Source: a virus. Taken from it: a stretch of DNA of 64,000 nt. A model generated the notes under the pieces. The model saw nothing but the letters and a program-made list of their open reading frames with translations, searched no databases and was not told the DNA's origin. The first letter of the stretch is position 1, and each line of letters starts with the position of its first letter. Made by a program: the position numbers and the translations under genes. Location: positions 1-64,000 of IMG/VR virus record IMGVR_UViG_3300050132_000112. One strand, written 5' to 3'. Shown piece by piece: positions 1 through 20,919 of this stretch.

Positions 1-240
1 CAGTCGCCTGTGTTCCTGTCGCCTGTGTTCCTGTAGCCTGTGTTCCAGTCGCCTGTGTTCCAGTTGCCTGTGTTCCTGTCGCCTGTGTTCCTGTCGCCTG
101 TGTTACTGTTGCCTGTGTTACTGTCGCCTGTGTTCCTGTAGCCTGTGTTACTGTTGCCTGTGTTACTGTCGCCTGTGTTACTGTCGCCTGTGTTCCAGTC
201 GCCTGTGTTCCAGTTGCCTGTGTTACTGTCGCCTGTGTTC
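1..240 (-). repeat. 16 tandem 15-bp units encoding NTG[D/N/Y][S/R/W]
   Basis: Unit AAC ACA GGC [GAT]AC (AGT/AGG/TGG) counted directly. Confidence 0.95.
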
Positions 241-971
241 TTTAAACCAGTATTGTCCTTACCCATATTAACGACGGTCAATACTTCTAACCATGTTAAC
301 TCTCTGATAAATTCAATTTCAGACGTGCAACTTTTATTACCCTCAATAACCGTTGTGCCATGATCTAAAATCTCAAACACTCTGTTGTTGGGGTCGAATG
401 AATAATAGTCGAAGCAATCTGCAGCCACTACACAATAGTGAAAACCGCTGTTACAAGGCGATACAACGCCTGTATGCTTATATCTTTTATTTAACTCGTA
501 CTTGTACCCACGGCATGACATATCTTTATTAGTGACCTTATAGCCCCTTATTGGTGCAGGAATACTTAATACATCAACAAAGCGTTGAGGCCATGACAAA
601 TTAGTCGGGTTATCTTTAAATAGCTGAGCAAATAACGGTGCTACTTCTTCGGGTGTAAACCCTGCAATACCGCATCCTATCTCTGTTAATAAGAAATGTT
701 TAGCAGGTATTTGATGAACATGAAATGCAAACTTCTTTATATACTCTTTTAATGCGATTAGCGACACTTTCGCCATTTTGGTATCCAATGTGGGTATGGC
801 GAACGATTGTCCTTGCATACCGAATGCCTGACCGTTTACAGCCCCGAATTTGTCTACTGCTAATCTTGCTGCTCCACCCAAGTGGTCGCCGTTCTCATTT
901 GAACCGAATACGAACACCTCATTCTTTTTGAGTTTCGTAATGTTGTTTGGTGTAATTTTCATTTTGACCAT
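1..971 (-). CDS. Partial (runs off window): macrodomain-like domain + Cys/His domain + NTGxx pentapeptide repeats
   Basis: Hand-translated, missed by ORF track: M(VKM)KITPNNITKLKKNEVFVFGSNENGDHLGGAARLAVDKFGA..QGQSFAIPT..TEIGCGIAG..GYKVTNKDMSCRGYKYE..CNSGFHYC..NTGDSNTGNWNTGDW; no stop to position 1. Confidence 0.85.
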   Translation of the reverse strand, partial: MVKMKITPNNITKLKKNEVFVFGSNENGDHLGGAARLAVDKFGAVNGQAFGMQGQSFAIPTLDTKMAKVSLIALKEYIKKFAFHVHQIPAKHFLLTEIGCGIAGFTPEEVAPLFAQLFKDNPTNLSWPQRFVDVLSIPAPIRGYKVTNKDMSCRGYKYELNKRYKHTGVVSPCNSGFHYCVVAADCFDYYSFDPNNRVFEILDHGTTVIEGNKSCTSEIEFIRELTWLEVLTVVNMGKDNTGLKNTGDSNTGNWNTGDWNTGDSNTGDSNTGNSNTGYRNTGDSNTGNSNTGDRNTGDRNTGNWNTGDWNTGYRNTGDRNTGD

Positions 972-983
972 TTTTTAATTTGT

Positions 984-1184
984 TTATTTTATTTTAAATA
1001 ATTGTTCTTTATATACTTGTCCTGATTGCATTAACCTTTTCTTCTCTGCCATGCAATGAGCGTAAATAGCGGGTCCAAACCATGCCGTTTTATTATCTCC
1101 GTAGTACAATTTCCAGTCACTCTTTTGTTGTTTAGGGTGATACTGTTTGTAGACTATGGCGGTTAAATGGCGTTGGGTATTCAT
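984..1184 (-). CDS. hypothetical phage protein
   Basis: ORF in tightly packed minus-strand run. Confidence 0.6.
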   Translation of the reverse strand: MNTQRHLTAIVYKQYHPKQQKSDWKLYYGDNKTAWFGPAIYAHCMAEKKRLMQSGQVYKEQLFKIK

Positions 1185-1187
1185 GGC

Positions 1188-1421
1188 TTAGTACTTATCT
1201 GCAATGTTACCGCAGTCACCGCATAACTCTAAATCACCTAAGTGTACAATGTCGGCACGACAACATGCTGACTTAGCGTAATGCTCTCTATGGTTGTGGA
1301 ACACTTCTTCATTACAAATGATTTGCCCGTTGTTTGTCATGCGGAATTGGTATTCAGTCATGGCACTATCCTTTATCTGCTCAAGCATGGGCATTAAGGA
1401 TGGATGAGATTGTAATTTCAT
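1188..1421 (-). CDS. small Zn-finger-like protein
   Basis: SACC..CGDCG motif. Confidence 0.55.
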   Translation of the reverse strand: MKLQSHPSLMPMLEQIKDSAMTEYQFRMTNNGQIICNEEVFHNHREHYAKSACCRADIVHLGDLELCGDCGNIADKY

Positions 1422-1426
1422 AATGA

Positions 1427-2083
1427 TTATATGTTTCTTGATTTTTTAGTGTTTATTAAACTTATGGTATTAGCGGCTACTCCAAATATCGATGCAATTT
1501 CTTTTTGCCTCCTACCCAAAAGCAACATTGCTTTAATTTCTAAAACCTGTTTATTGCTCAGTTTAGCACGGTGATTGTCTTCGCCTCTTTTTGTCTTATA
1601 TAGACCAGTTTGGTGCCCGTGTATTTTATTTTCTCTATCTGTACACCATTCTAAATTAGATACATGGTTATTTTTTTTGTGCCCGTCGATATGGTTAACC
1701 TGCGGTTTATTTTCGGGATTGGGAATAAAAGCAAATGCAACCAGCCTATGAACCTTTATTTTTTTCAACACGCCGTTTGTATTTTCTAACCATATTGCAT
1801 AATATCCATCTTTAGAGTTACTACCGAAAGTTATTTTTTCTTCTAATATAAAACTCGGACCCCAAGCCAATTTAATTTCCTTTTTATTTACCCCTACTTG
1901 TCCAAATTCATTAACAGAACATTCTTTAAAACCTACACAATCTATAAAATTGGGGGATAAAGGATATTCATTTTTAATAGATTTTGGTTCTTTATTAGCT
2001 TTCTTTTTTGCCCAAAGAGTCTTGTTATAAGCTGACCTTCTCGCCTTAAAATCCTCGATAGATTCAAACTTTTTGTGGTTCAT
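1427..2083 (-). CDS. HNH homing endonuclease with C-terminal HTH
   Basis: VHRLVAFAFIPNPENKPQVNHIDGHKKNNHVSNLEWCT. Confidence 0.9.
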   Translation of the reverse strand: MNHKKFESIEDFKARRSAYNKTLWAKKKANKEPKSIKNEYPLSPNFIDCVGFKECSVNEFGQVGVNKKEIKLAWGPSFILEEKITFGSNSKDGYYAIWLENTNGVLKKIKVHRLVAFAFIPNPENKPQVNHIDGHKKNNHVSNLEWCTDRENKIHGHQTGLYKTKRGEDNHRAKLSNKQVLEIKAMLLLGRRQKEIASIFGVAANTISLINTKKSRNI

Positions 2084-2107
2084 GTGGGTTATAGTGTTTA
2101 GTGGTTT

Positions 2108-2410
2108 TTAATTAATGAACTTTATTTTATTTGGTATAACATGCTCAATTGTGCCATCTGATTTTTCTATAATACCATAAGTATCCATTACCAAAGCATT
2201 ATCGCTATCGGTGCTTTCATATCCCCAACCGTGAAATAAACCATCGGTATCATAGTCTGAACTATAAGCTGCTGTGCCGGGTTTAGTGGTGTATTCCCTT
2301 CGTTCGCTGTATGGTGTAAGTTCGGGCAATTCATTGCCTTCTTTATTTATCCAAACCCTGCTAATAAATGATTTAAATTTTACTTGTCTCATGGTTACGT
2401 TGCTTTCCAT
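2108..2410 (-). CDS. hypothetical phage protein
   Basis: GLFHGWG..GIIEKSDGTI, common small phage protein pattern. Confidence 0.6.
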   Translation of the reverse strand: MESNVTMRQVKFKSFISRVWINKEGNELPELTPYSERREYTTKPGTAAYSSDYDTDGLFHGWGYESTDSDNALVMDTYGIIEKSDGTIEHVIPNKIKFIN

Positions 2411-2559
2411 TACTTTTCTGTATCTTCTCGCTTTATAAGTTTGTCGATTTCGCCCTCTACCAATTTGGTAACAGAGGTTCTTTTTTTCTTAGCTATTTTC
2501 TTAACAGTTTCACGTTTGCTTTCTGTCGTGTAAATAATTATTGGTTTTATTTCTTCCAT
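2410..2559 (-). CDS. ribbon-helix-helix DNA-binding protein
   Basis: KPIIIYTTESKRETVKKIAKKKRTSVTKLVEGEIDKLI; ATG 2559 preferred because the promoter overlaps the longer start. Confidence 0.65.
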   Translation of the reverse strand: MEEIKPIIIYTTESKRETVKKIAKKKRTSVTKLVEGEIDKLIKREDTEK

Positions 2560-2589
2560 GCTTTTAGTGATGATTGCGTTTCCATAATT

Positions 2590-2597
2590 CAAAGGTA
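2590..2597 (-). promoter_or_regulatory. Bacteroidota -7 promoter element
   Basis: TACCTTTG with TTTG at 2616-2619. Confidence 0.65.
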
Positions 2598-2771
2598 ATG
2601 ATAATAATTTAATATCAAAATATTATTACAATTTATTTTCACTTTCTTTATTCTTTCTTTCCCCTCTATCCTACCCCCATAGTAATGTCCTGTTTACTGC
2701 CTATTTACAGTAACTACTTAACTAAGTTTACAAGCTATACGCAATTATCCGAGAGAGCCCATTAGACAGTC

Positions 2772-3524
2772 TTACCTGTCACAGTAACCAAAGGATGTTT
2801 TAGTATAGTTAGCTTTAGTGTTGCACAATATGAAATGGTTTGCCCCTAAATAATAGTAGTCGCCTGTTTCTTTGTTGTATCGGGCGTTTACTATACCTTG
2901 TTTCTTTAGCTTTTGATAATCGCCCTCAGAAATGTTCACTATGCTTTTTTTGATAGTTAAACCGAATGATTTTAAATTCGAGAGTACATTTAAGGCCTGA
3001 GTATGGCTAAGGTTCAAAAGTTCGCCTGCTTTACGGGCTGATAAGTTGGGGGTTTTTGATAACTCATTTTTAATAGAAGATAGTAAGGTGGCAAAACATT
3101 TAACGCTGCGTTGATTTTCGTTCTTTGCTGCTTTAGCGATCTTATATTTTTGTGCTTTTATTTTATGTATGATGATTTGAGCCTGAATAAATCGCTTTAT
3201 GTCGGCTATGGGTACTTGCTTGTAGTTGTTACGCCTTCGGTTGAATAAATGCTTTTCCTCATTGTGCCCGATTAGGTGTAAATGGTCACCTTGTAATTTG
3301 GCTAAACCGTTGGCTATGGCATACTTTAATAAGCGATTGAAGCGAAGTACACCTATGCGTAGTTTAATACGGTGAGCGTCCTTATTTGCCTTGAAATTTA
3401 ATAGGATGGGATGTTGTAGTCCTGCGGATAGTTGTTTGATTAGAATATAAGCATCGGTGTAGTCCTTACCGTGGTTAGACAGTCTGTAACAATCGGGGCT
3501 TAAATAAACGAAAAATCCGCTCAT
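2772..3524 (-). CDS. basic HTH DNA-binding protein, possible replication initiator
   Basis: LSARKAGELLNLSHTQALNVLSNLK HTH; possible second wHTH near N-terminus. Confidence 0.5.
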   Translation of the reverse strand: MSGFFVYLSPDCYRLSNHGKDYTDAYILIKQLSAGLQHPILLNFKANKDAHRIKLRIGVLRFNRLLKYAIANGLAKLQGDHLHLIGHNEEKHLFNRRRNNYKQVPIADIKRFIQAQIIIHKIKAQKYKIAKAAKNENQRSVKCFATLLSSIKNELSKTPNLSARKAGELLNLSHTQALNVLSNLKSFGLTIKKSIVNISEGDYQKLKKQGIVNARYNKETGDYYYLGANHFILCNTKANYTKTSFGYCDR

Positions 3525-3700
3525 ATTTTCTTACAGAGGACGGTCCGGAAAGACGTAAGTTCTTTAAAACCCTGTAATCGATATGAACGGATAACCGTTT
3601 TATCTTTGCTTGAAGTAATTATAACGTGTAGTTTTCCGGACCGTGCGTTTTTAAATACTTAATGATACAAAGATATATATTTTGATTTTGTTTTTACAAA
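3506..3700 (-). promoter_or_regulatory. promoter plus structured 5' leader that sequesters the start codon
   Basis: TATCTTTG 3675-3668 and TTTG 3700-3697; perfect 12-bp inverted repeat 3540-3551/3633-3644; second helix 3515-3526/3581-3592 covers the ATG. Confidence 0.7.
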
Positions 3701-4081
3701 TTAATTCCAACCCTCGCAATCGAAATTAATAGTTCGCATTTTACCTTCGTCCCAATATGCTTGTAATTTTAATTGGAATACCTCTATTATTTCAATTGCT
3801 TTTGGCCTCATGCCGCCGTTGCCCTCTACCAAATGGAATGAAAGGTCGAAATCGGGGTATAGTTCTTCAAATTCACTTAAATACATTGTACCCACAATTT
3901 TTTGTTTATTTTCCAAAAGGTCATAATACTTGCCTTTGATAACATCAATTAAATTATAATCCTCTTTGCTTTTTTTAGGCTTCCTGTCAAAAAAGGTAAT
4001 ACAATCATAGTGTCCACCGTAAATGCCAAACCATATATTTTTAGTAGATATTTTAGGCATTTTTAAACTTGCTGTTTCCAT
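3701..4081 (-). CDS. hypothetical protein
   Basis: ORF track. Confidence 0.6.
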   Translation of the reverse strand: METASLKMPKISTKNIWFGIYGGHYDCITFFDRKPKKSKEDYNLIDVIKGKYYDLLENKQKIVGTMYLSEFEELYPDFDLSFHLVEGNGGMRPKAIEIIEVFQLKLQAYWDEGKMRTINFDCEGWN

Positions 4082-4132
4082 CTTTTTTGCTCTTTTTTTC
4101 CTTTAAAGTGTACTAAATACCCCGATAGTGGG

Positions 4133-4495
4133 TTAATCAATTTTTATAGTCGGCAAAACGGTTAACCAACCCTTTATAACTAATAAGCCAATGGCCGAAA
4201 CAAACCATGACTTTATAAGATCACGTATTTTTCTATTCCAAATATAACTGTCCTTTTCGTGTTCAGATAAAATGTCATATTCTTTATGGTGTCCTACACT
4301 ACACATCGAACCATTATATAATTCATAATTAGCCCAAAATATAGTTTTCTTTACGCCCAAATAATAACAAACAATCACATCTTCAAACAATAGCGGTTTT
4401 TGATTTTTAATACATTCCATTATTGTAGTAAGCAGCAATTGTTGCCCCTTAGACATTTCAGATTTACGATTATGGGTGAGTTGTAAGCCTTCCAT
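4133..4495 (-). CDS. hypothetical protein
   Basis: ORF track. Confidence 0.6.
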   Translation of the reverse strand: MEGLQLTHNRKSEMSKGQQLLLTTIMECIKNQKPLLFEDVIVCYYLGVKKTIFWANYELYNGSMCSVGHHKEYDILSEHEKDSYIWNRKIRDLIKSWFVSAIGLLVIKGWLTVLPTIKID

Positions 4496-4499
4496 TTTA

Positions 4500-4841
4500 C
4501 TATTTATTTACTGGATAATTACCTTCATCATCAGCTATCATAGTACCTAATACATCACTCTCGTCTACTTTGCTGATGTCGTAGCCTGTTCGTTTCCATG
4601 TATGGGCGTACTGAGCGAATTTACCAAAATGCGTATCACAATAGGCGACTTTATCTTTCCAATCGGCATTATTATCACCTCCACGCTCATTAAAAAAGGA
4701 ATTGATAATAATAGTTGCCATATCGTTATTGCCCTTGTAGATGTCGTTTAAGTGCAAATAGTTTCTTAACCGCCATTCTGTTTTATTCATGCCGTGGATT
4801 ACAAGGCGTTCAGCATCTTTATGTTTGTTTCGTCTGCTCAT
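4500..4841 (-). CDS. hypothetical protein (start probably MSRRNK)
   Basis: ATG 4841 immediately follows stop of upstream gene. Confidence 0.55.
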   Translation of the reverse strand: MSRRNKHKDAERLVIHGMNKTEWRLRNYLHLNDIYKGNNDMATIIINSFFNERGGDNNADWKDKVAYCDTHFGKFAQYAHTWKRTGYDISKVDESDVLGTMIADDEGNYPVNK

Positions 4842-4842
4842 T

Positions 4843-5253
4843 TTAGTATGCGTCTGTATAATATTTACCATTAAGTAGGTATAATGAAGCCATTGAATAC
4901 CATCCTCCGCCCTCACAATATTTGTATGGCTGTTTTAATAGTTGAGGTTGCGCTGTATAGTCTTTAAGGGATTTGTTAACAATAGTTGAAACAGGTTTGG
5001 TGTATTCGGACATAGGCATTTCAAAGTTGCCAAATATAAGTGTCTTAACGTTTTGCTTCATTTCAACCTTAACGCAATGTATTTCTGTATGATTAATTGA
5101 AAATATCATATCGGTAAACTTTACTTTACCTTTCTGCCTTGCATCTTCGATTGATTTATAGGTAATACGCTTAGTACTTGGCACATTATCAATTTTAGCC
5201 AATTCCTTTAACATATCGGAATAGTAGCCGGGGTTTTCTTTAGTTAAGTCCAT
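4843..5253 (-). CDS. hypothetical protein
   Basis: ORF track, coupled to neighbours. Confidence 0.6.
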   Translation of the reverse strand: MDLTKENPGYYSDMLKELAKIDNVPSTKRITYKSIEDARQKGKVKFTDMIFSINHTEIHCVKVEMKQNVKTLIFGNFEMPMSEYTKPVSTIVNKSLKDYTAQPQLLKQPYKYCEGGGWYSMASLYLLNGKYYTDAY

Positions 5254-5492
5254 TATTTATAAAGATTAATAGTACCCAGTGCGCTATCAAACGGATTATG
5301 GCTATTTTCAGCCCCTACAAGCGATTTATCCTGTTCTTTGGTGTTATCTATCGTTTGAAACCTTATTTTGTGTTGTAGCACCTCTGGCGTGTCTAAAAGG
5401 TATTCGAACTTTTCAAACAGTTTAGTAAGGTATTCCGTTTCAAACTCACAGTCTACATTTAGAAACTGATAAGTTATTTTGTGGATAATCAT
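5253..5492 (-). CDS. hypothetical protein
   Basis: ORF track, overlapping start/stop. Confidence 0.55.
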   Translation of the reverse strand: MIIHKITYQFLNVDCEFETEYLTKLFEKFEYLLDTPEVLQHKIRFQTIDNTKEQDKSLVGAENSHNPFDSALGTINLYK

Positions 5493-5755
5493 GGCTTTAA
5501 ATAGGTTATCTTATTAAAGATATTTTGCTTAACTTGGTTTATAATATCCTCGGGTACTTCTACCTCTTGAATACCAATGCTTGATCTACGCCTATCAATG
5601 GCATCATACCACTTTAAAGGCTTAAACTTATGGCGTATTGTTTCTCTTGTTTCATAATAATATTCTCGCAAAAGCAATTGCATTTCATCATTTAAGCGAA
5701 ACCTAAATGTTTCTTGAATTAGTGGTGAGTGTGGTATTAGTACGGTGTGATACAT
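5489..5755 (-). CDS. hypothetical protein
   Basis: ORF track, ATGA overlap. Confidence 0.55.
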   Translation of the reverse strand: MYHTVLIPHSPLIQETFRFRLNDEMQLLLREYYYETRETIRHKFKPLKWYDAIDRRRSSIGIQEVEVPEDIINQVKQNIFNKITYLKP

Positions 5756-5757
5756 GA

Positions 5758-5877
5758 TTATTTCATTCTATGTGTATGAGTGCTTGAATAGGCTGGGCAA
5801 AGTACATCACTGCAGCCGGTTAATAAACCCGATAACAGCACTACTATAATGCTGATTAGTAAAAATATCATTTTCAT
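5758..5877 (-). CDS. 39-aa small lipoprotein
   Basis: Hand-translated MKMIFLLISIIVVLLSGLLTG|CSDVLCPAYSSTHTHRMK; lipobox LLTGC. Confidence 0.65.
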   Translation of the reverse strand: MKMIFLLISIIVVLLSGLLTGCSDVLCPAYSSTHTHRMK

Positions 5878-5932
5878 GGTTATTGGTTTTAAGCGTTTAT
5901 TTTGTTATCTTTATGTACGTTATTTGAAATAG

Positions 5933-6130
5933 TTAAATAGTAAGGTCGTAGTAATCACCATTGTTGAACCCTGTACGTGTATGGGCTAAATTCCAACTTT
6001 CCCGCCACGTAGAACGGTTTTCTTCCTGTGGGTTAATGTCTACTAACATTTCGTTAATTTCTTCATTTATGGCGACTATTGTTACCAACCCATTAAACCA
6101 CTTGCTTTTAAAGGTTGACTTTAATTTCAT
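5933..6130 (-). CDS. hypothetical protein
   Basis: ORF track. Confidence 0.55.
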   Translation of the reverse strand: MKLKSTFKSKWFNGLVTIVAINEEINEMLVDINPQEENRSTWRESWNLAHTRTGFNNGDYYDLTI

Positions 6131-6142
6131 TTTCCTGTGTGT

Positions 6143-6313
6143 TTAATAAAATATCTCATGATAAATATGCATAGCCTGTAAGAACAGAAACCTGTCAACT
6201 AAGCTATAATGTTCGAGGTTATTTACAAGGTAGTTAGTTAACTCTACTAAGTCCTGTTTACAGTTAACGCCATCCAGTATTTCAAATACTTCATCTGTTG
6301 AATATGGTTTCAT
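6143..6313 (-). CDS. 56-aa hypothetical protein
   Basis: Hand-translated MKPYSTDEVFEILDGVNCKQDL..; fills gap with ATGA overlap. Confidence 0.5.
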   Translation of the reverse strand: MKPYSTDEVFEILDGVNCKQDLVELTNYLVNNLEHYSLVDRFLFLQAMHIYHEIFY

Positions 6314-6582
6314 ACGGCGTTCATTACTTCGTTTAACACTTCTTTGTCGTAACCATCACTATAAGGGTCGCTAATGGCATATAAAGCCAAACGACACATT
6401 AGTTTGTTTAATTCGGGGTCGTTCAACTGCGAGGCTCTAACAGCCACCATAGACAAAATGTTACGCAATATCTTTAACGGCATAACAACGCCATACATAG
6501 CGGGTCCACCGTGTTATGATATTTCTTTTAATAATGCGGGTGTGTTTACTTTCCAAAGTAAATCTTTTTGATTAGTTGACAT
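6310..6582 (-). pseudogene. phage protein interrupted by an in-frame TAA at 6514-6516
   Basis: MSTNQKDLLWKVNTPALLKEIS*HGGPAMYGVVMPL.. in one frame. Confidence 0.5.
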
Positions 6583-6602
6583 ATTGAGACTTTTTTTAGT
6601 GT

Positions 6603-6869
6603 TTATTTATATTGATATACTGCTACTCTCCTACCATTAACGTTATCATACCCTACATGCTTTCTAAGCTTGTTTAACTGCCCATTGATAGTACGGAGCA
6701 TTTTAAAGTAAACAGCGTGCTGTGCCTTAGCTTTACGCCATTCTGTGGTCTTATCTTCTTCTAAAGTTAAACCCATTGCTCCGGTACGTGCTTTATGTAG
6801 GGTAGCTTCTAAATTAGTTAGTTTATCTTCTATTTCCGCTTGCTGCTGTAATAGTGTGGTAGCGTTCAT
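6603..6869 (-). CDS. hypothetical coiled-coil protein
   Basis: GAMGLT..EWRKAK pattern of small early phage proteins. Confidence 0.6.
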   Translation of the reverse strand: MNATTLLQQQAEIEDKLTNLEATLHKARTGAMGLTLEEDKTTEWRKAKAQHAVYFKMLRTINGQLNKLRKHVGYDNVNGRRVAVYQYK

Positions 6870-6875
6870 GGTTAT

Positions 6876-7070
6876 CTAATAGTTGTTTAATAATCGGTCA
6901 ATAAATATATTGTGGTCAACCTCGCTCAGTTCATCTAATAAATCTAAATGAACTGAATTGCCATCTAAATCATGCATACTTACTATTATTGGATTTAAAC
7001 CCTTTATGTAGTAATGAACCATTATTTCGGTATCTATGCCGTTTATTTTTATTGTTATTTTCCTTTTCAT
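6876..7070 (-). CDS. hypothetical protein
   Basis: ORF track. Confidence 0.5.
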   Translation of the reverse strand: MKRKITIKINGIDTEIMVHYYIKGLNPIIVSMHDLDGNSVHLDLLDELSEVDHNIFIDRLLNNY

Positions 7071-7076
7071 AACGCC

Positions 7077-7286
7077 TTAGTTTAAAGAGCAATGAATGAT
7101 GTTTTTACGCTGTTCATTGAAAGATAAATCAATTTGTTTGTATACCTTTAGATGGGCGCAAGATTGCTTTATAGCGGTTCTAATAGCTTCCTTTTCGCCC
7201 TGCAATGTTTCAACATAAACAGTTTGGCAGTTTTTAAATGTGATTTTATATTTTGTCAAGGTCATAACTATATTATTTAAGAACAA
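7077..7286 (-). CDS. hypothetical protein
   Basis: ORF track. Confidence 0.5.
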   Translation of the reverse strand: MFLNNIVMTLTKYKITFKNCQTVYVETLQGEKEAIRTAIKQSCAHLKVYKQIDLSFNEQRKNIIHCSLN

Positions 7287-7497
7287 CGTTATAATTTTCG
7301 TTCAACCAATTAACCAACTCCTGTGCGCTTTCGTCATTTAATGCCATCCAATTGGTTTGTCCATTTTCGGGGCTATTTATTTTTACTTGAGGTGCATAAC
7401 CAACATGCGGGTTACCAATCTTTTCTAATTGGCTGCGGTAATAATTGTTTAATTTAAGTGTTGACATTCGAGACAATTTAAAAGCCCTTAACGACAT
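7273..7497 (-). CDS. hypothetical protein
   Basis: ORF track. Confidence 0.55.
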   Translation of the reverse strand: MSLRAFKLSRMSTLKLNNYYRSQLEKIGNPHVGYAPQVKINSPENGQTNWMALNDESAQELVNWLNENYNVVLK

Positions 7498-7503
7498 TGT
7501 ATA

Positions 7504-7585
7504 GGCTTGTACTGCCGAATGTCCGTTAACCGAAGCTAACAGACTGGCAGACCTTAAACAAGTGTCTCAGGTTTGTAAAGGGTAT
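7504..7585 (-). ncRNA. structured RNA motif, copy A
   Basis: AUACCCU..CCUGAGA..GGUCUGCCAG[hairpin with cUUCGg]CAUUCGGCAGUAC; paralogue at 8100-8181. Confidence 0.7.
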
Positions 7586-7587
7586 CT

Positions 7588-7848
7588 TTAATGCTCTATT
7601 AATTCCCGTATCATATCGTTTAACGCTTTGTAATCTAACTTCGAGCCGTTCCACTTAATTCTATCAGGCGTATTGCTATCGGTTAGCCCCGCCCATTTAA
7701 TAAAGCCACCATAAAGTTTTTTAGAGTTTGGGTTACCTTTAACATATTCTTTTGCTGATTGATATAGGTTATAATCGTTGTTAATGTGTAAAGCCACATT
7801 CCATGTTTGGCGGTTCTTCCACCCGTTGTAATCTGTTGTAGTTTTCAT
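7588..7848 (-). CDS. conserved phage early protein (YNGWxNxxTW family)
   Basis: YNGWKNRQTWNVALHINND. Confidence 0.7.
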   Translation of the reverse strand: MKTTTDYNGWKNRQTWNVALHINNDYNLYQSAKEYVKGNPNSKKLYGGFIKWAGLTDSNTPDRIKWNGSKLDYKALNDMIRELIEH

Positions 7849-7886
7849 TTGTTTGAGACTGATTAAATGATTAATTATTTGGTTGA

Positions 7887-8057
7887 TTAGTTGTTTAAGT
7901 CGGCTATTGAATAGTTTAACCTATTGGCTATTATTCTAAAATTCTCTTTATCGATTTGATTAGATAGATATATATCGGCATCTACTTCATTTGAATAACT
8001 ACGTAAAAGGCTTTGTGTTGGAATAAAAACAACAGTATAGATAGTTATAGTTTTCAT
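7887..8057 (-). CDS. 56-aa hypothetical protein
   Basis: Hand-translated MKTITIYTVVFIPTQSLLRSYSNEVDADIY.. Confidence 0.5.
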   Translation of the reverse strand: MKTITIYTVVFIPTQSLLRSYSNEVDADIYLSNQIDKENFRIIANRLNYSIADLNN

Positions 8058-8099
8058 GATATTAGTAATTTAAATAGTTAAGTAAATCAAACAGCAACC

Positions 8100-8181
8100 A
8101 GCCGTTTACTGCCTTATGCCTATTCCATTGACGGAGATAGGCTGGCAGACCCCGAAACGCTCTCAGGGATAAACAGGGTAT
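8100..8181 (-). ncRNA. structured RNA motif, copy B
   Basis: AUACCCU..CCUGAGA..GGUCUGCCAG[hairpin]CAUAAGGCAGUAAAC; covaries with copy A. Confidence 0.7.
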
Positions 8182-8183
8182 TT

Positions 8184-9095
8184 TTATATTTTAAACAATC
8201 CTTCGTTTATTGGAAGTGTAATTATTTCTTTCTGTGCCTTAACGTTAGGTTTGAACTTCTTAGCTTTTGATTTACACCCTACACACATTGGCATAAATGG
8301 TTCGGCTTTTAGTAGGTTCCCTTGACCGTTCATTTCTTCTAAGTGATAACGGTTTATATTCTGTGCCCAATCCCACGGGAATTTATTTACAACCTCTTTT
8401 CTAATGTCTGTCCACCATTTACCCCATTTAGGGAAGGCTTTAGCGGCTTCTAATCCATTTGCCATGCTTTGCATCGTTCCGCACATACATTCGCCTGAAC
8501 GACCTAATTCTATGCTTACAGGGTTTCGAGTAATATTATTAGCAGATAGATATTCATCACGTTCTTTTGTTGTCCACCAATGAACCATATTAACCCAAAT
8601 ATTTTTAGGTGCAGCAGGGTCGATATTAAAATATTTATCCCCTAAATTATCTGCCCTGTTTTCACTTTCATCAACCCTAACACCGTTTAGCATTAAGATA
8701 TATCTACCTTTAACACCGTGGCGTATATTCTTAGATATTGCTGTTCTAAATGGCTGTGCTTTTAATACATGGTATGATTTAGTATGAGCATCTACACCTC
8801 TACCAAAAAACCCCTTGCGCATTACGTATTTAAAATACGCATCTCCGGCGTTAGCTTCTGCAAACTTAAAACCTGATTTTTCTGCTACCTCATGAACGAA
8901 ATTTCGTGCTTCGTGTATTCCTGTACCTGTTACACCGTGTAATATTAAATCAATTTTAATTCCTAGTTCATTACATATTCTTTCCAATAACCTACTATCG
9001 TCGCCGCCCGAAAGAAGCAAACAAACCGCATAAGGTTGATAAGTAGTCATTGCTTCGTCATATATTTCAAGTGATTGCCTTAATTTATCGTTCAT
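8184..9095 (-). CDS. PAPS reductase-family (PP-loop) protein
   Basis: LLLSGGDDS PP-loop, GVRVDESENR, SGECMCG, C-terminal CxxC. Confidence 0.85.
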   Translation of the reverse strand: MNDKLRQSLEIYDEAMTTYQPYAVCLLLSGGDDSRLLERICNELGIKIDLILHGVTGTGIHEARNFVHEVAEKSGFKFAEANAGDAYFKYVMRKGFFGRGVDAHTKSYHVLKAQPFRTAISKNIRHGVKGRYILMLNGVRVDESENRADNLGDKYFNIDPAAPKNIWVNMVHWWTTKERDEYLSANNITRNPVSIELGRSGECMCGTMQSMANGLEAAKAFPKWGKWWTDIRKEVVNKFPWDWAQNINRYHLEEMNGQGNLLKAEPFMPMCVGCKSKAKKFKPNVKAQKEIITLPINEGLFKI

Positions 9096-9099
9096 GGTA

Positions 9100-9447
9100 T
9101 TAAATATAATCTTGTTCTTCTAAATTGCACGTTACATTTTCAGCTAAAAACATTCTATCTTCATTTAACATATAATCCATATCGTTTATACTGTTAAGGC
9201 TAATCAATAAATCAGCGAAACTATCTAATTGTTCCTCACGCATACAATCATAATACGTTGTGGTTGTTTGTTTGTATGCCTCTTTAATAACCGCAGAACG
9301 AAATAAGAATATTGTTTTGTTGTAGCGACTAACTGTTGATTTTGCGTCCTTGTATGTTACATATTCGCCTATTGTATCAAATCCATTATGGTCTAACACT
9401 TGATACTCATTTGTTGAGTGTTTTGTAAATGATGCTTGAAGTGACAT
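9100..9447 (-). CDS. hypothetical protein, first gene of leftward arm
   Basis: ATG 9447 lies downstream of promoter-like CATCTTTG (9499-9492). Confidence 0.5.
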   Translation of the reverse strand: MSLQASFTKHSTNEYQVLDHNGFDTIGEYVTYKDAKSTVSRYNKTIFLFRSAVIKEAYKQTTTTYYDCMREEQLDSFADLLISLNSINDMDYMLNEDRMFLAENVTCNLEEQDYI

Positions 9448-9953
9448 GCTTGAGAGCGTTAAGTCAGTAGCGTTATTGCTGATTGACAATACAAAGATGA
9501 AACACTTTACAACACTTTCCCACATTATCAATATTTGGAATAACCTAACACCTTTATACCTATAACAACATCACAACTAAGGCATTTATTATAACAAAAA
9601 GTAATGACCTCTAAAACAACTCTTATTCCTACCTGCCGGAGGCTATTAACAAACCAAACTCTACCAATATAACCAACAATCAATTATACGCCCCAAATAT
9701 TCCCTACAACTAATCATCACCACTTAACCACACCAATCTATCACCAATAGCCCAAAGTTGCTACAACCGCCTTAAACAGCGTTATAACCGATAACCATAA
9801 GTTATGATACTTTACCCTATCCATTACTTTTTGTTATGATTTGATGTTTTGTGTCGAAGGGATTATCCACACCCTTTTAACCAGCCTTTCCCCCTCTAAA
9901 CCAACACGATAGGGTAGGGGAGAGGCATAAACAAACTGCATAGTAAAGCAGAC

Positions 9954-9981
9954 AGTTAACATAATATGTATTATGAGGACG
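9954..9981 (-). other. XerCD dif-like recombination site
   Basis: CGTCCTCATAA-TACATA-TTATGTTAACT vs E. coli dif GGTGCGCATAA-TGTATA-TTATGTTAAAT (22/28). Confidence 0.8.
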
Positions 9982-10481
9982 ATTATTACCAAGCAATTAC
10001 CCACCAATCAAGCGGGCACAACAAAGGTTTACCAAGCGCTTAGCAACACCATCCAATTAGCGACCTGCAAAGTGGTTTACCTTTACCATAGCCCAACAGT
10101 CCAACGGGATTAGGTTGTCGAACCTCTTGCCGAAACATTTACAGACGGGGTACGGGTTAGGTCGGCCATCCCCTTTCCCATTTACACGGTGACGGGCTAT
10201 CCATGGGGGATAATGCCTAATCATTGACTCTGTAAAAAAAATTATAAAAATATTTTTGGCACCAAACCTAAGGCAAGTGTGCATTTCTATTTGGTGACAT
10301 TATTAATAAAAGATAGTTTGATTATAATAGAATAAGTAAGTATTGGTGATAATGGTAGTTATCAATTAGTTACAAAGGTGTAAATGCTGGATTTGGGCAC
10401 TTTAATGCTGGGATTCGATACAGCAGATGCTGACTATTTATCTTTTTATTAGTTTTATTTGGATAGATGTATAATAGTTTG

Positions 10482-10489
10482 TACATTTG
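10482..10489 (+). promoter_or_regulatory. Bacteroidota -7 promoter of rightward arm
   Basis: TACATTTG with TTTG upstream at 10458-10461. Confidence 0.65.
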
Positions 10490-10515
10490 TTATACAATAA
10501 TAAAGACAAAGAAAT

Positions 10516-11034
10516 GTGGATAGTAATAAAGGATTGCCAAAGCGTTCAGCTAAAAAGAATGTCTTTAAAGGCAGGCAAGAGTACTTCGATGCTGCAACAG
10601 GCGCTAAGGTTGGTGAGAAGCTTATTTACCGTTCACAGGCCATTAAAACAATATTTGTAACTATGTATCTGAACGACGATAATATGTATGAGTTTATCTC
10701 TGGATTAGGAAATCCGGGGAAAGTGTTGGCTTACATACTGAAAGACTACAATGATAAAACTGGTATGTTTTATTTCAGCAACACGACAAAAGAATTGATG
10801 ATTAAAGAATTGAAATTGTCAATTGGAACCGTTAGAGGAATAGTAAAAGAGTTCGCCACCAAAAAGACCATTATACATGTTGGTGGTAGCGAGTATATGG
10901 TTAACCCTCGCCTGTTTTATAAAGGCGCTCAGATCAACTACGATGCACAGGTAGAGGCTTTTGATGGGCTACACAAAATATCATCCTTTAAAGAAATTGA
11001 ACGTGCTATTGAAAGTAAGGTTGTTAAAGCATAA
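10516..11034 (+). CDS. RepL-like wHTH replication/maintenance protein
   Basis: ELKLSIGTVRGIVKEF HTH followed by YMVNPRLFYKG. Confidence 0.7.
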   Translation: MDSNKGLPKRSAKKNVFKGRQEYFDAATGAKVGEKLIYRSQAIKTIFVTMYLNDDNMYEFISGLGNPGKVLAYILKDYNDKTGMFYFSNTTKELMIKELKLSIGTVRGIVKEFATKKTIIHVGGSEYMVNPRLFYKGAQINYDAQVEAFDGLHKISSFKEIERAIESKVVKA

Positions 11035-11040
11035 ATTGAG

Positions 11041-11574
11041 ATGGGTTACGTTTATTGCCTGCATGATTTTACAAATAATATTTGCCGTATAGGTAAAACA
11101 AAGGCGCATAAAGCGGGTAGAATTAGATCACAGACTGGTTATTATCCATTTGAATTAACACCTGTTAGTGTATATTTTATTGATGAAAGTGCGGCAGAAA
11201 AACATTTTCACAAGACGTTTAAATCTAAAAATGTTAGGGCCGATTGGTTTAAAATAACGCCCGATGATTTTGATGAAGAAGTTAGAAAATATAAATTAAT
11301 AGTAGGAGAGGTAGTTGCTTCAAGGCCTATAGGCGTACAATCAAATGGAACTATTAAATACTGGCGGGTTTTATCTGAAAGTGTAGAACACAAATGTGAT
11401 TTTGTTCACATCAACATTGGCGATGGGCTTTTAAAATTAAAATGCAAGGATAAGTTTGTAAGCCTTCAGTTGGAAGGTGCCCACGGCTATAGAATAGCTA
11501 AAGATGGTAATTGGGTTAAGGCTTTCGCATCAAGAAAGAATAGTTTTAAATTTGTTAAAGTAAGATTTAAATGA
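11041..11574 (+). CDS. GIY-YIG (T5orf172-like) domain protein
   Basis: GYVYCL..RIGKT..EKHFHKTF..ADWF. Confidence 0.7.
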   Translation: MGYVYCLHDFTNNICRIGKTKAHKAGRIRSQTGYYPFELTPVSVYFIDESAAEKHFHKTFKSKNVRADWFKITPDDFDEEVRKYKLIVGEVVASRPIGVQSNGTIKYWRVLSESVEHKCDFVHINIGDGLLKLKCKDKFVSLQLEGAHGYRIAKDGNWVKAFASRKNSFKFVKVRFK

Positions 11575-13866: not shown

Positions 13867-13899
13867 GTGTTTAACAGGGATTTTTTTTTATATTTGTAT

Positions 13900-14430
13900 A
13901 TGGAAAAATGGAAAAAAATACCAGACTCAAACTATAGTGTTTCAACGCATGCGAGGATAAGAAATAATTTAACTAATTATATGTTTAAACTCCATGTTAA
14001 TAAACAGGGATACCAAAAGATACATATTAAAGTCGGGGTAGTTGAAAAAAATTTCTTTGTACACAGACTATTGATGGCAGCATTTGTTCCTAATCCCGAA
14101 AACAAACCGTGCGTTAATCATATTAATGGCATTAAAAACGATAATAGATTAGAAAATTTAGAGTGGTGTACAGTACGGGAAAACAATATTCATGCTTTTA
14201 GATGTTTAGGAAAAAGCGCTGAGGGAAACTATTCTAATCTAAAAAATATACCACCACCAGTACCAGTTTATAGCATAGATAGTTTAGGAAACAAGGTAAG
14301 ATTTAATTCCCTAAAGGAAGCCGGTATAAGTATTGGAACTACAGCTGGTCATGTATATAATTCGGTTTATAAAAAGAAAAAAAATGGTAGTCCGTATACT
14401 GCAAAGGGATATTGTTTTGAGTTGGCATAA
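13900..14430 (+). CDS. NUMOD4-HNH homing endonuclease
   Basis: MEKWKKIP..YSVS; VHRLLMAAFVPNPENKPCVNHINGIKNDNRLENLEW; ATG just after TATATTTG. Confidence 0.9.
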   Translation: MEKWKKIPDSNYSVSTHARIRNNLTNYMFKLHVNKQGYQKIHIKVGVVEKNFFVHRLLMAAFVPNPENKPCVNHINGIKNDNRLENLEWCTVRENNIHAFRCLGKSAEGNYSNLKNIPPPVPVYSIDSLGNKVRFNSLKEAGISIGTTAGHVYNSVYKKKKNGSPYTAKGYCFELA

Positions 14431-18874: not shown

Positions 18875-18934
18875 CCCCCTTAAACAACAAATAGATAATT
18901 AATAGAAAACAAACAAAATGTATTATATTTGCAT

Positions 18935-20107
18935 ATGCTAAGGGCTTATAAATATCGCATAATGCCAACACCTGACCAATCTATACTTATCAATAAGCAT
19001 ATTGGTAGTTGTCGGTTTGTTTACAACTTGGCATTAGAGGTGAAGAACAATGCTTATGCTACCCATAGGAAAAACATTACTTGTTTTGATTTGATGAAGC
19101 AATTGCCCGATCTAAAAAAAGAATGTGAATGGTTAAAAGAAGTAGATAGTCAATCTCTACAACAATCGATAATAAATCTTGATAAGGCATTTACACAATT
19201 TTTTAAGGGATATTCAAGATTTCCTAAGTTCAAAAACAAACATTCTGCTCAATCTTTTCGAAATCCACATGGTGAATTTGTAGAAATAAAAGAAGGAAAA
19301 CTATATCAACCAAAATTTAGAAGTGGAATTAAAATAATAATAGATAGAGAATTTACAGGGGAAATTAAATCAACTACAATTAGTAGAACACCAACTGGCA
19401 AATATTTTGTATCCATTTTGGTAGACACCTCTAACAACATACCTGATAAAAAAACAATAGTCGAAAAAACATCAATTGGCATAGATTTAGGTATCAAATC
19501 GCTAATTGTCACCAGCGATGGAGTGAAAATAGATAACCCAAAACATCTTAAAAAGCAATTATCTCATTTAAAATACCTACAACGCCAATATTCAAAAAAG
19601 AAAAGTGGTAGCAATAATAAAACCAAATCCCGATTGAAATTAGCATTATGCCATGAAAAAATAGCCAATCAACGAAAAGACTTTTTGCATAAACTTTCAA
19701 GTGAACTTATCAAGAACCACGATACGCTTTGCTTTGAAACTCTGCAAATTGATAATATGATGAAAAATCATAAATTGGCACAAGCTATTCAAAGTGCAGG
19801 CTGGGGTATGTTTGTAGAAATGTGTAAATATAAAGCCGAATGGAACGGGAAAAATATTTTACAGATTCCAACATTTCAGCCGTCAACCAAGATTTGTTCC
19901 AATTGCGGAGCCACAAATCATACACTTACTTTGGCAGATAGAGAATGGATTTGCGCTAACTGTTTGACTTTGCATGATAGGGATGTAAACGCAGCTATCA
20001 ACATAAAAAATTATTCATTAAGAGATTGCGGTGGGGTACGCCGTGAAAAGCCTGCGGAACTGCCGACGTTAGTTGGAGTAATGAAACAGGAAAATATTAC
20101 AGTGTAA
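18935..20107 (+). CDS. tnpB: TnpB RNA-guided endonuclease
   Basis: AYKYRIMPT HTH; GIDLG, FETL and DRDVNAAINI RuvC residues intact; CxxC..CxxC finger. Confidence 0.95.
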   Translation: MLRAYKYRIMPTPDQSILINKHIGSCRFVYNLALEVKNNAYATHRKNITCFDLMKQLPDLKKECEWLKEVDSQSLQQSIINLDKAFTQFFKGYSRFPKFKNKHSAQSFRNPHGEFVEIKEGKLYQPKFRSGIKIIIDREFTGEIKSTTISRTPTGKYFVSILVDTSNNIPDKKTIVEKTSIGIDLGIKSLIVTSDGVKIDNPKHLKKQLSHLKYLQRQYSKKKSGSNNKTKSRLKLALCHEKIANQRKDFLHKLSSELIKNHDTLCFETLQIDNMMKNHKLAQAIQSAGWGMFVEMCKYKAEWNGKNILQIPTFQPSTKICSNCGATNHTLTLADREWICANCLTLHDRDVNAAINIKNYSLRDCGGVRREKPAELPTLVGVMKQENITV

Positions 20108-20307: not shown

Positions 20308-20919
20308 ATGAAAAAACCGACAAAACAAAACTGCATTGATTTTTTAAATAAAATAGCAGACATTAAAAAATGGGACCCACAGTATGAGGGTGGTGAACCA
20401 ATTGACACTTATTATTCAAAAACCGACGGAAGTTATATTTGCTTTGTAAATAATGCAGAGGATGTCGCATGGATGATTAAAAAGGGAATTACAGACGAAA
20501 TACAATCAATAAATGATGGTAAGGTTGCCTGTATAGGTTTTAACCCCTTAGAACAAAAATGGTATGGATGGTCACATAGGGCAGTTTATGGGTTTGGTAT
20601 AGGTTCTGAATGTAAAAAAGGGGATTGTGGATATGTGCCAACTGATTTAAATGATTTTCTTGAGAGAAGTATTAATTTTTGGAGTGACGATGCACACACA
20701 AATGTTTCTGCTATTCCCGCCGTAAATGACAAAGGTATTCATGGTGCACAGGTTACTTGGGAATATGTACCTGAATTTGTTCCAAATAAAAACCTACACG
20801 GAACTATTGGAGAAACATTTGTTTATCCACCTCAAAAATATGGTAAGGGTGAATGGGTTGCAACGAGCATGGAAGATGCTAAACAAATGGCTATTGATTT
20901 TGCAGAAGGAGTATCATAA
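20308..20919 (+). CDS. conserved phage hypothetical protein
   Basis: KWYGWSHRAVYGFGIG..AKQMAIDFAEGVS. Confidence 0.7.
   Translation: MKKPTKQNCIDFLNKIADIKKWDPQYEGGEPIDTYYSKTDGSYICFVNNAEDVAWMIKKGITDEIQSINDGKVACIGFNPLEQKWYGWSHRAVYGFGIGSECKKGDCGYVPTDLNDFLERSINFWSDDAHTNVSAIPAVNDKGIHGAQVTWEYVPEFVPNKNLHGTIGETFVYPPQKYGKGEWVATSMEDAKQMAIDFAEGVS

Follow-up and report, generated by a model that had tools for sequence, protein, structure and literature searches.

A recurrent two-hairpin RNA element behind stop codons in uncultured soil phages

Introduction

The locus described here raises the question of what a short sequence is doing when it stands twice in a single phage operon, each time directly behind a stop codon and with only a few hundred nucleotides between the two copies. 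To our knowledge, RNAs that act alone on RNA polymerase form very few systems, of which the put RNA of phage HK022 and its kin is the model case. An earlier note, made from the DNA letters alone, had described the two repeats as an 82-nt structured RNA and suggested, among other roles, an antiterminator of the put kind. In the present analysis, the fold, the distribution and the genomic setting of this element are described, and the mechanisms that may account for them are weighed. The window, i.e., the whole stretch of DNA analysed, comprises bases 1-64000 of the 73,355-bp IMG/VR virus record IMGVR_UViG_3300050132_000112 (G000).

Results

Two copies in the leftward operon

The two repeats lie on the minus strand, each 2 nt behind a TAA stop codon, and both the coordinates and the strand given in the earlier note proved to be correct. 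Each copy is approximately 85 nt long, and the two, named A and B, are 80% identical over 85-87 alignment columns, with the AUACCCU motif starting at 8181 in copy A and at 7585 in copy B. A covariance model built from both copies (R1) scores A at 101.6 bits and B at 92.3 bits, with the next best match in the window at 11 bits, while the final family model (R3) gives them 81.4 and 57.8 bits, respectively. The pattern CCTGAGA..GTCTGCC is found twice in the window, against no occurrence in 100 shuffles, and twice in the whole 73,355-bp record. The features of the locus, in the order of transcription, are as follows:

8184..8186, minus strand: TAA stop of the 303-aa PAPS-reductase-like ORF (8184..9095), 2 nt ahead of copy A
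8098..8183, minus strand: RNA element copy A, consisting of the tail, P2, the linker U, P3, the 3' UA and the A-specific 3' strand of P1
8169..8183, minus strand: 5' tail of copy A, AAAUACCCUGUUUAU, which repeats the CCCUG of the P2 5' strand
8150..8168, minus strand: P2 hairpin of copy A, CCCUGAGA, GCG loop, UUUCGGGG (minimum free energy, MFE, fold)
8109..8148, minus strand: P3 of copy A, with the base CUGCC/GGCAG, an internal loop of A opposite AUAA, and the distal arm 8142-8118 (MFE fold)
8088..8108, minus strand: hairpin behind copy A, built in part from the 3' side of A's basal helix, with AUUUACUU after it
7588..8057, minus strand: two small ORFs between copies A and B (56 aa, and the 86-aa DUF7249 ORF)
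7588..7590, minus strand: TAA stop of the 86-aa DUF7249 ORF (7588..7848), 2 nt ahead of copy B
7501..7587, minus strand: RNA element copy B, the second copy
7573..7587, minus strand: 5' tail of copy B, AGAUACCCUUUACAA
7551..7572, minus strand: P2 hairpin of copy B, ACCUGAGAC, ACUU loop, GUUUAAGGU (MFE fold)
7512..7550, minus strand: P3 of copy B, with the base CUGCC/GGCAG, an internal loop of A opposite AUUC, and the arm 7544-7521 with its cUUCGg loop (MFE fold)
7482..7508, minus strand: hairpin behind copy B, AAGCCU..AGGGCUU followed by UUAAAUU, which encloses the ATG of the ORF 7273..7497 (present in the MFE fold)

When folded as single sequences, the two copies adopt the same pair of adjacent hairpins, and the minus-strand RNA folds better than its shuffles (z of -2.96 and -2.67 for the two copies), in contrast with the plus strand, which folds no better than shuffles (z of -1.66 and -0.46). 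The distal arms differ at 15 of 24 positions, yet both form near-perfect hairpins, that of copy B with 10 bp, and only 6 of 5000 random mutants of A's distal arm fold as well as B's arm does. The structured minus-strand RNA, the distal arm that changes its sequence while keeping its pairing, and the cUUCGg loop of copy B, all of them claims of the earlier note, are thus borne out.

The note had also held that the motif is not an intrinsic terminator, which agrees with the sequence, given that a GC-rich hairpin with a direct U-tract is absent from the motif. The terminator scan does flag a separate, weak terminator-like site behind copy A, the hairpin 8088..8108, which is favoured in the MFE fold of a longer stretch. 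The 5' tail of copy A, for its part, is able to pair either with the 3' strand of P2 or with 8108-8098.

A family across several uncultured phages

The note had proposed a search for covarying homologues in other phages as a check of its own claim, and covariance-model searches of the relatives fetched for this purpose recovered nine strong copies in six virus records. The element is, therefore, a family found across several uncultured soil phages rather than a private repeat. The final model, R3, run over 1.23 Mb, scores the nine copies at 45-81 bits, with the next best match at 17 bits. The carrier lineages have 28-66% TerL identity, with one further lineage that has none.

The copies were reached by different routes. 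When four complete relatives (60-66% TerL identity) were searched with cmsearch, G002 yielded copy C (34.4 bits) and G003 copy D (16 bits), and C2 is a diverged second copy located 538 nt behind C. Copy E was found, through the pattern of bases common to A, B and C, in G016, a record with no TerL similarity to the present phage. The pattern shared by D and E then led to copy F in G017, whose TerL is 45% identical, and to copies G1 and G2 in G018, where TerL similarity is barely detectable. A prefiltered search of 15 relatives with R1 had returned 0 of 15, a false negative, given that cmsearch was later positive in two of them; the lesson for method is that the pre-filter missed all the homologues, which were revealed by Infernal searches of whole relatives.

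Below the threshold, a look-alike with a P3 like that of D and the tail AAUACC is present in G004 (L302:4933-4993, minus strand; 12.9 bits), with a strand switch 1.2 kb ahead of it. Another, in G005 (L407:8031-8109, plus strand; 15.1 bits), is preceded by an ORF-free stretch and then a first ORF, at the stop of which it begins, and an identical sequence is present in G006. More members than the nine counted here probably exist. An extra 15.8-bit match in G002 is ambiguous and also below the threshold, and G001 has no copy at E-values of up to 5.

Scanned for in metagenomes and species genomes, the core pattern GTCTGCCAG..GCATNNGGCAGTA gave 69 metagenome and 24 genome rows, in which the C and E lineages alone were genuine. 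TACCC(N10)TGAGA..GGCAGTA gave 32 viral rows, with G002 alone genuine. The shorter CCTGAGA..GTCTGCC had at least 118 rows in viral contigs, and ACCCT..CCTGAGA..GTCTGCC had 15 viral rows and at least 120 genome rows, with none genuine among the matches listed in either case. The seven viral-contig rows of GGTCTGCCAG..CATNNGGCAGTA were all coding look-alikes, the strict 24-base pattern had no match in the metagenomes, and a BLASTN comparison with 50,697 phage records, made both for the region and for copy A, found no match.

A few candidates were set aside. A match to the tail and P1 only (L308, 12625-12658) falls within a 220-aa ORF and was dropped as chance, and the matches at L467:10441..10393 (12.6 bits) and L471:19438-19503 (17 bits) have two hairpins without the conserved bases and are not counted. 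A 54-nt conserved stretch in L318, L322, L328 and some 25 further loci from Lachnospiraceae genomes and gut metagenomes is a chance match to the core pattern, with no P2 and no hairpin, and is probably coding.

Anatomy and covariation of the element

Folded singly, all nine copies form the same two hairpins. In the nine-row alignment (A6), 90.7% of the cells hold standard pairs, against 75% in shuffles and 33-42% for slid partners, and 18 pairs change on both sides, a number that none of 500 shuffles reaches; as A6 was fitted to the model, and is thus biased towards the structure, the single-sequence folds provide the independent check. Given that the G-U pairs would be C-A mismatches on the opposite strand, the fold belongs to the RNA of the coding strand.

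Variation is concentrated in P2 and in the distal arm of P3, and conservation is found where the two hairpins meet. P2 has 5-9 bp of variable sequence, with covariation at seven of its eight pairs, and the P3 distal arm is equally variable, with covariation at all six pairs. By contrast, the 5-bp base of P3, CUGCC/GGCRG, is near-invariant and changes to G-U pairs exclusively, the R being a G (GGCGG) in F and G2. The linker between P2 and P3 is one U in most copies, and the G before it, the A opposite the AUNN/AAUU loop and the UA after GGCAG are all near-constant. The 1x4 internal loop is conserved in seven of the nine copies, being closed in C2 and variant in D. On the 3' side of GGCAG, all copies continue with UA and then mixed sequence.

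The basal helix (P1), which the earlier note had drawn as closing the whole motif, did not hold up, given that it has 10 bp in A, is weak and shifted in B, and is missing in four relatives (D, E, F and G2). Standard pairs occupy 72% of its cells over the nine copies, and P1 is outside the conserved unit. The full 82-nt extent is likewise not conserved, the conserved unit being the two hairpins and a short 5' tail.

The tail has two main forms. One, A(A/C)UACCC.., stands exactly 10 nt ahead of UGAGA in A, B and C2. The other, UAAAGUU, belongs to D, E, F and G2, and in the first three of these its UAA is the stop codon. The bases with which the P2 5' strand opens recur in the tail of A, B, C, C2 and G1 (CCCUG, CUUUGA, CCGUG, and CCGUU for CCGCU), and the tail of D-F is complementary to the P2 loop and 3' strand, so that the tail could displace the P2 5' strand in eight of the nine copies. 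Against shuffled tails, the complementarity to the P2 3' strand has p values of 0.015-0.11 per copy and a Fisher p of 4e-5 over seven copies, figures obtained with hairpin borders drawn by eye, related copies and simple shuffles, and the G2 tail has no such complementarity (p 0.62). The tail pairing is thus a lead only.

Placement and genomic context

Eight of the nine copies begin 0-4 nt behind a TAA stop, and G2 begins 11 nt behind the nearest one. In three of the six records a second copy follows in the same orientation, at a distance of 596, 538 or 419 nt, and the two enclose one or two small ORFs, which are unrelated from phage to phage. In five of the six records the first copy follows the first one to three ORFs, at 2.3 kb (G000), 1.2 kb (G002), 1.4 kb (G003), 0.4 kb (G016) and 0.6 kb (G017) behind a strand-switch region. 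The distance to the next start codon varies from about 4 to about 88 nt.

In the present phage, small packed ORFs occupy the minus strand at approximately 1-9.7 kb, and from 10.5 kb onwards the genes for replication, packaging and structural proteins follow on the plus strand. The leftward operon is presumably early, as judged by its gene content, and copies A and B take up two of its few gaps. The operon has more than 15 gene junctions, of which no more than one or two carry the element. Between the divergent operons lies an ORF-poor, partly GC-rich stretch of about 0.8 kb (9690-10510), which probably holds divergent promoters; no Rfam match was found in it at E-values of up to 1, and the fold of 9840-10260 is no better than that of shuffles on either strand (z of -0.69 and -1.31).

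The neighbouring ORFs and the surrounding DNA are not conserved between carriers. A leader of one gene family was considered and rejected, since five relatives lack the PAPS-reductase-like and DUF7249 neighbours and the adjacent ORFs are unrelated between phages. In an all-versus-all BLASTP of the ORFs of eight records (E 1e-4), G016 shares just five ORFs with the others, of which the only one common to more than one other element carrier (G000 and G002) is an HNH endonuclease (1427-2083, minus strand).

A hairpin and a U-rich run stand directly behind four of the nine copies (A, B, D and F), and no convincing terminator was found behind the other five (C, C2, E, G1 and G2), G1 having a weak one only. 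A terminator scan of 1-11000 gave 9 sites against 7.8 in shuffles, i.e., no excess.

The proteins scanned include none that was recognised as a phage RNA polymerase, and on this basis the operon is probably transcribed by the host polymerase. Bacteroidota rarely use Shine-Dalgarno sequences. Shine-Dalgarno-like 4-mers precede only 5 of the 44 long ORFs, a scarcity that makes a Bacteroidota host plausible but unproven, and no relatives of the TerL were found in 185,579 species genomes.

Several other genes of the window deserve mention in their own right. The first ORF of the rightward operon (10516-11034, plus strand) resembles the RepL plasmid replication family (PF05732, E 3e-6). Putative homing-type nuclease genes are represented by the HNH ORF at 1427-2083 (PHROG 59), by a T5orf172/MUG113 ORF at 11041-11574 (plus strand) and by an HNH_3 ORF with NUMOD4 at 13867-14430 (plus strand). 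A 203-aa ORF at 20308-20919 (plus strand) resembles Pfam Tad6, a Type I Thoeris inhibitor (PF25188, E 3.5e-40), and is likely, by this similarity, to be an anti-defence gene in the replication module. A 392-aa ORF at 18929-20107 (plus strand) resembles PHROG 506, annotated as 'transposase' (E 1e-125), and is suspected, from its size, to be a TnpB-type gene. As regards an IS200/IS605 end or a TnpB guide RNA, a search with R1 with filters off found no copy of the element outside 7501-8182.

Comparison with known RNA classes

Rfam 15 gave no match in the whole window at the gathering thresholds, and on the 801-nt stretch 7450-8250, at E-values of up to 10, it gave just a 13-bit match to a eukaryotic scaRNA, in line with the earlier note, which had recognised no riboswitch or ribozyme consensus in it. 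ARAGORN found no tRNA or tmRNA genes in the window, and pistol, k-turn and tetraloop-receptor readings, tried by hand, did not fit. The 5-bp stem CUGCC/GGCAG resembles the stem of the type I-F CRISPR repeat, as that of a putative RNA anti-CRISPR or solitary repeat mimicking a host CRISPR repeat would, but the element has a 22-26-nt arm in place of the pentaloop, and GGCGG in F and G2; a genome scan with the core pattern found no array-like matches.

In the literature on structured phage RNAs and RNA antiterminators, nothing was found that describes the motif. An IMG/VR catalogue lists 8495 candidate structured RNAs, the DNAVirus_X set, which are, like the element, covarying intergenic motifs drawn from IMG/VR, with an average of 67 nt (PMC10690425), and the motif may already be present in this catalogue under a number. 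The element is a structured RNA of phages, presumably cis-acting, that fits no Rfam family.

Discussion

A proposed host-read RNA of the early transcript

The conservation of the bifurcation, the lack of a common protein, the spread across lineages and the operon-proximal site together point to a cis-acting RNA with a host reader. The reader would be a host factor given that the carriers share no phage protein apart from the HNH endonuclease, and conservation at the bifurcation is what a protein-binding platform looks like. By analogy with put, the most likely reader would be RNA polymerase, and a rough probability of 0.3 is given to this reading, which is the one favoured here.

According to this reading, the element would be made within the leftward, presumably early, polycistronic transcript, where the untranslated stretch behind the stop codon would fold into the two adjacent hairpins. 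The bifurcation, i.e., the closing pair of P2, the linker U, the CUGCC/GGCRG base, the 1x4 loop and the 3' UA, would form a sequence-specific platform, for which the distal arms would be mere scaffolds. This platform may be read at the RNA level by a host factor, the likeliest being the transcribing RNA polymerase or an elongation factor bound to it, and the polymerase that has made the RNA may then become resistant to the pauses and terminators of the downstream operon, as occurs with put. Given that the tail touches or includes the stop codon and is able to pair with the P2 3' strand, the formation of P2 may depend on a ribosome that terminates there.

Other phages provide a comparable arrangement. 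In lambda, nutR and nutL are cis-acting RNA sites that closely follow the first early gene, and each phage has two of them. On the other hand, nut needs a phage protein, and the carriers of the present element share none apart from the HNH endonuclease; no N-like protein was identified.

The put RNA is closer in this respect. The put RNA has some 70 nt and two stem-loops, the bifurcation of which binds the zinc-binding domain of beta', and it occurs in two similar copies with no need for a phage protein (PMC9378689). The element and putL/putR share a length of about 70-85 nt, two adjacent stem-loops with bulges or internal loops, a place in the early transcript (presumably so here) and the lack of a dedicated phage protein (PMC9378689). 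Both phages carry two copies, which are 75% identical in HK022 and 80% identical for A and B, and the shared put block of HK022 starts about 20 nt after the cro stop, much as the element follows the first ORFs.

The resemblance to put that the earlier note had proposed thus stands for architecture and placement and fails for homology. A search of the 40,751-bp HK022 record with the model R2, with filters off, gave three hits of 7.8-9.8 bits, none of them at putL or putR, and by this sequence comparison the element is not a member of the put family. HK022 has one copy of put per operon, whereas both copies of the element are found in the same operon and have other conserved bases, and the host of HK022 is an enterobacterium, which that of the element probably is not. 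The binding of polymerase is here a proposal. The presence of two copies in one operon in three phages, 419-596 nt apart, also speaks against put-like action, since a persistent modification of the put type would already be in effect, making the second copy redundant. The hairpins with U-rich runs behind four copies count in favour of put-like action, and the five copies with no convincing terminator behind them, like the scan that gave no excess of sites, count against it.

A possible processing or stabilising site

The T7 early operon carries several RNase III sites. A site for the processing or stabilisation of the RNA is nearly as likely an explanation as put-like action. Here, a host endoribonuclease would cut the 3' side of the internal loop, be it RNase III, with P3 and a helix stacked next to it as substrate, or an enzyme with sequence specificity that reads the base and the loop, and the upstream cistron would end in a protective hairpin, while paired copies would release a short separate mRNA. 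The intergenic position directly behind the stops in eight of the nine copies agrees with such a site, as does the presence of up to two copies per operon flanking one or two small ORFs, and a host enzyme would account for the lack of a shared carrier protein. P3 also has the right parts, with an asymmetric internal loop that separates a lower from an upper stem, and a loop that could restrict the RNase III cut to one strand is present as the 1x4 loop of seven of the nine copies.

The T7-type sites, such as R1.1, share the intergenic position and this order of stems and loop, and leave a protective 3' hairpin (PMC1540722). The element differs from them in its shorter helix, its extra P2, its near-invariant base and its one or two copies per operon. 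By the same account, E. coli RNase III acts on about two helical turns and uses no conserved positive sequence determinants, and helix stacking on a neighbour can supply the length (PMC1540722). The 14-16 pairs of P3 fall short of the two turns, which would be reached only if P3 were stacked on P1 or P2, and the near-invariance of its base is at odds with substrates that have no positive determinants. Processing would, moreover, leave P2 without a role and sits poorly with an element found at only one or two of more than 15 junctions.

A possible conformational switch

A further alternative turns on competing pairings, of the tail with the P2 3' strand and of the basal helix against a downstream hairpin. 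As a conformational switch or attenuator, the element would sense a ligand, a protein or the terminating ribosome, and would set either termination or the translation of the next gene. The complementarity of the tail to the P2 3' strand in eight of the nine copies fits such a switch, and so do the surroundings of individual copies, given that the 3' side of A's basal helix doubles as the 5' strand of the terminator-like hairpin, that the hairpin downstream of B encloses the next start codon, and that the tail of D and of F forms pairs with a U-rich run that follows a third hairpin. These downstream hairpins are, however, not conserved, being absent in C, C2, E and G2, and the next start codon is anywhere from about 4 to about 88 nt away. 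A ligand pocket would find few conserved unpaired bases, and the unrelated neighbour genes offer no regulon that would point to a ligand, all of which makes the switch a doubtful explanation.

A possible self-cleaving ribozyme or recombination linker

A new small self-cleaving ribozyme, of which the paired copies would excise the genes between them, would suit the compact form of the element, the near-invariant bases around the junction and the internal loop, the sharp 5' border at the stop codon and the ORFs flanked by paired copies, as well as its presence in the TerL-unrelated lineage G016, which has no shared protein save the HNH endonuclease. The known families do not support it, given that no Rfam match to a self-cleaving ribozyme (hammerhead, twister, twister-sister, pistol, hatchet or HDV-like) was found at E-values of up to 10 in the 801-nt stretch. 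The hammerhead core is CUGANGA, with which the CUGAGAG and CUGAGAC of the element are at odds, and an HDV-like fold could not be drawn by hand, having no P3 or P1.1. The distal loops vary in length and sequence, so that no conserved tertiary contacts are visible, and a ribozyme is improbable.

Least probable of all is a DNA-level linker for the recombinational exchange of early-gene cassettes, with the RNA fold as a secondary trait (e.g., an mRNA end hairpin), which would agree with flanking genes that differ wholly between carriers, with no DNA similarity around the element, with a G2 P2 that is the same as that of E and F and unlike that of its neighbour G1, and with lineages of 28-66% TerL identity and one of none, but compensatory changes in two helices, and G-U pairs that make sense on a single strand, call for more than recombination, and the identity of the copies (80% for A and B) is too low and patchy for efficient homologous exchange.

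A possible version gated by translation

Returning to the put-like reading, the position of the tail suggests a more specific form of it, a translation-gated, protein-independent regulator of elongation in a non-enterobacterial, probably Bacteroidota, host, which is unlikely in this full form. The stop codon of the upstream ORF would belong to, or adjoin, a 5' strand in competition for the P2 3' strand, and only a terminating ribosome would let the platform fold and engage its polymerase. Read-through of the early operon would, in this case, be coupled to the translation of its first genes.

Significance

If the put-like reading is true, the element would be a second, unrelated two-hairpin RNA at a similar site, which would make this strategy more general, and it would operate in soil-phage hosts that likely do without Shine-Dalgarno initiation. 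It would also provide a small, portable part for the control of transcription in poorly tractable bacteria. Should the element prove instead to be a processing site or a ribozyme, it would still be a defined motif of 65-85 nt with a clear consensus.
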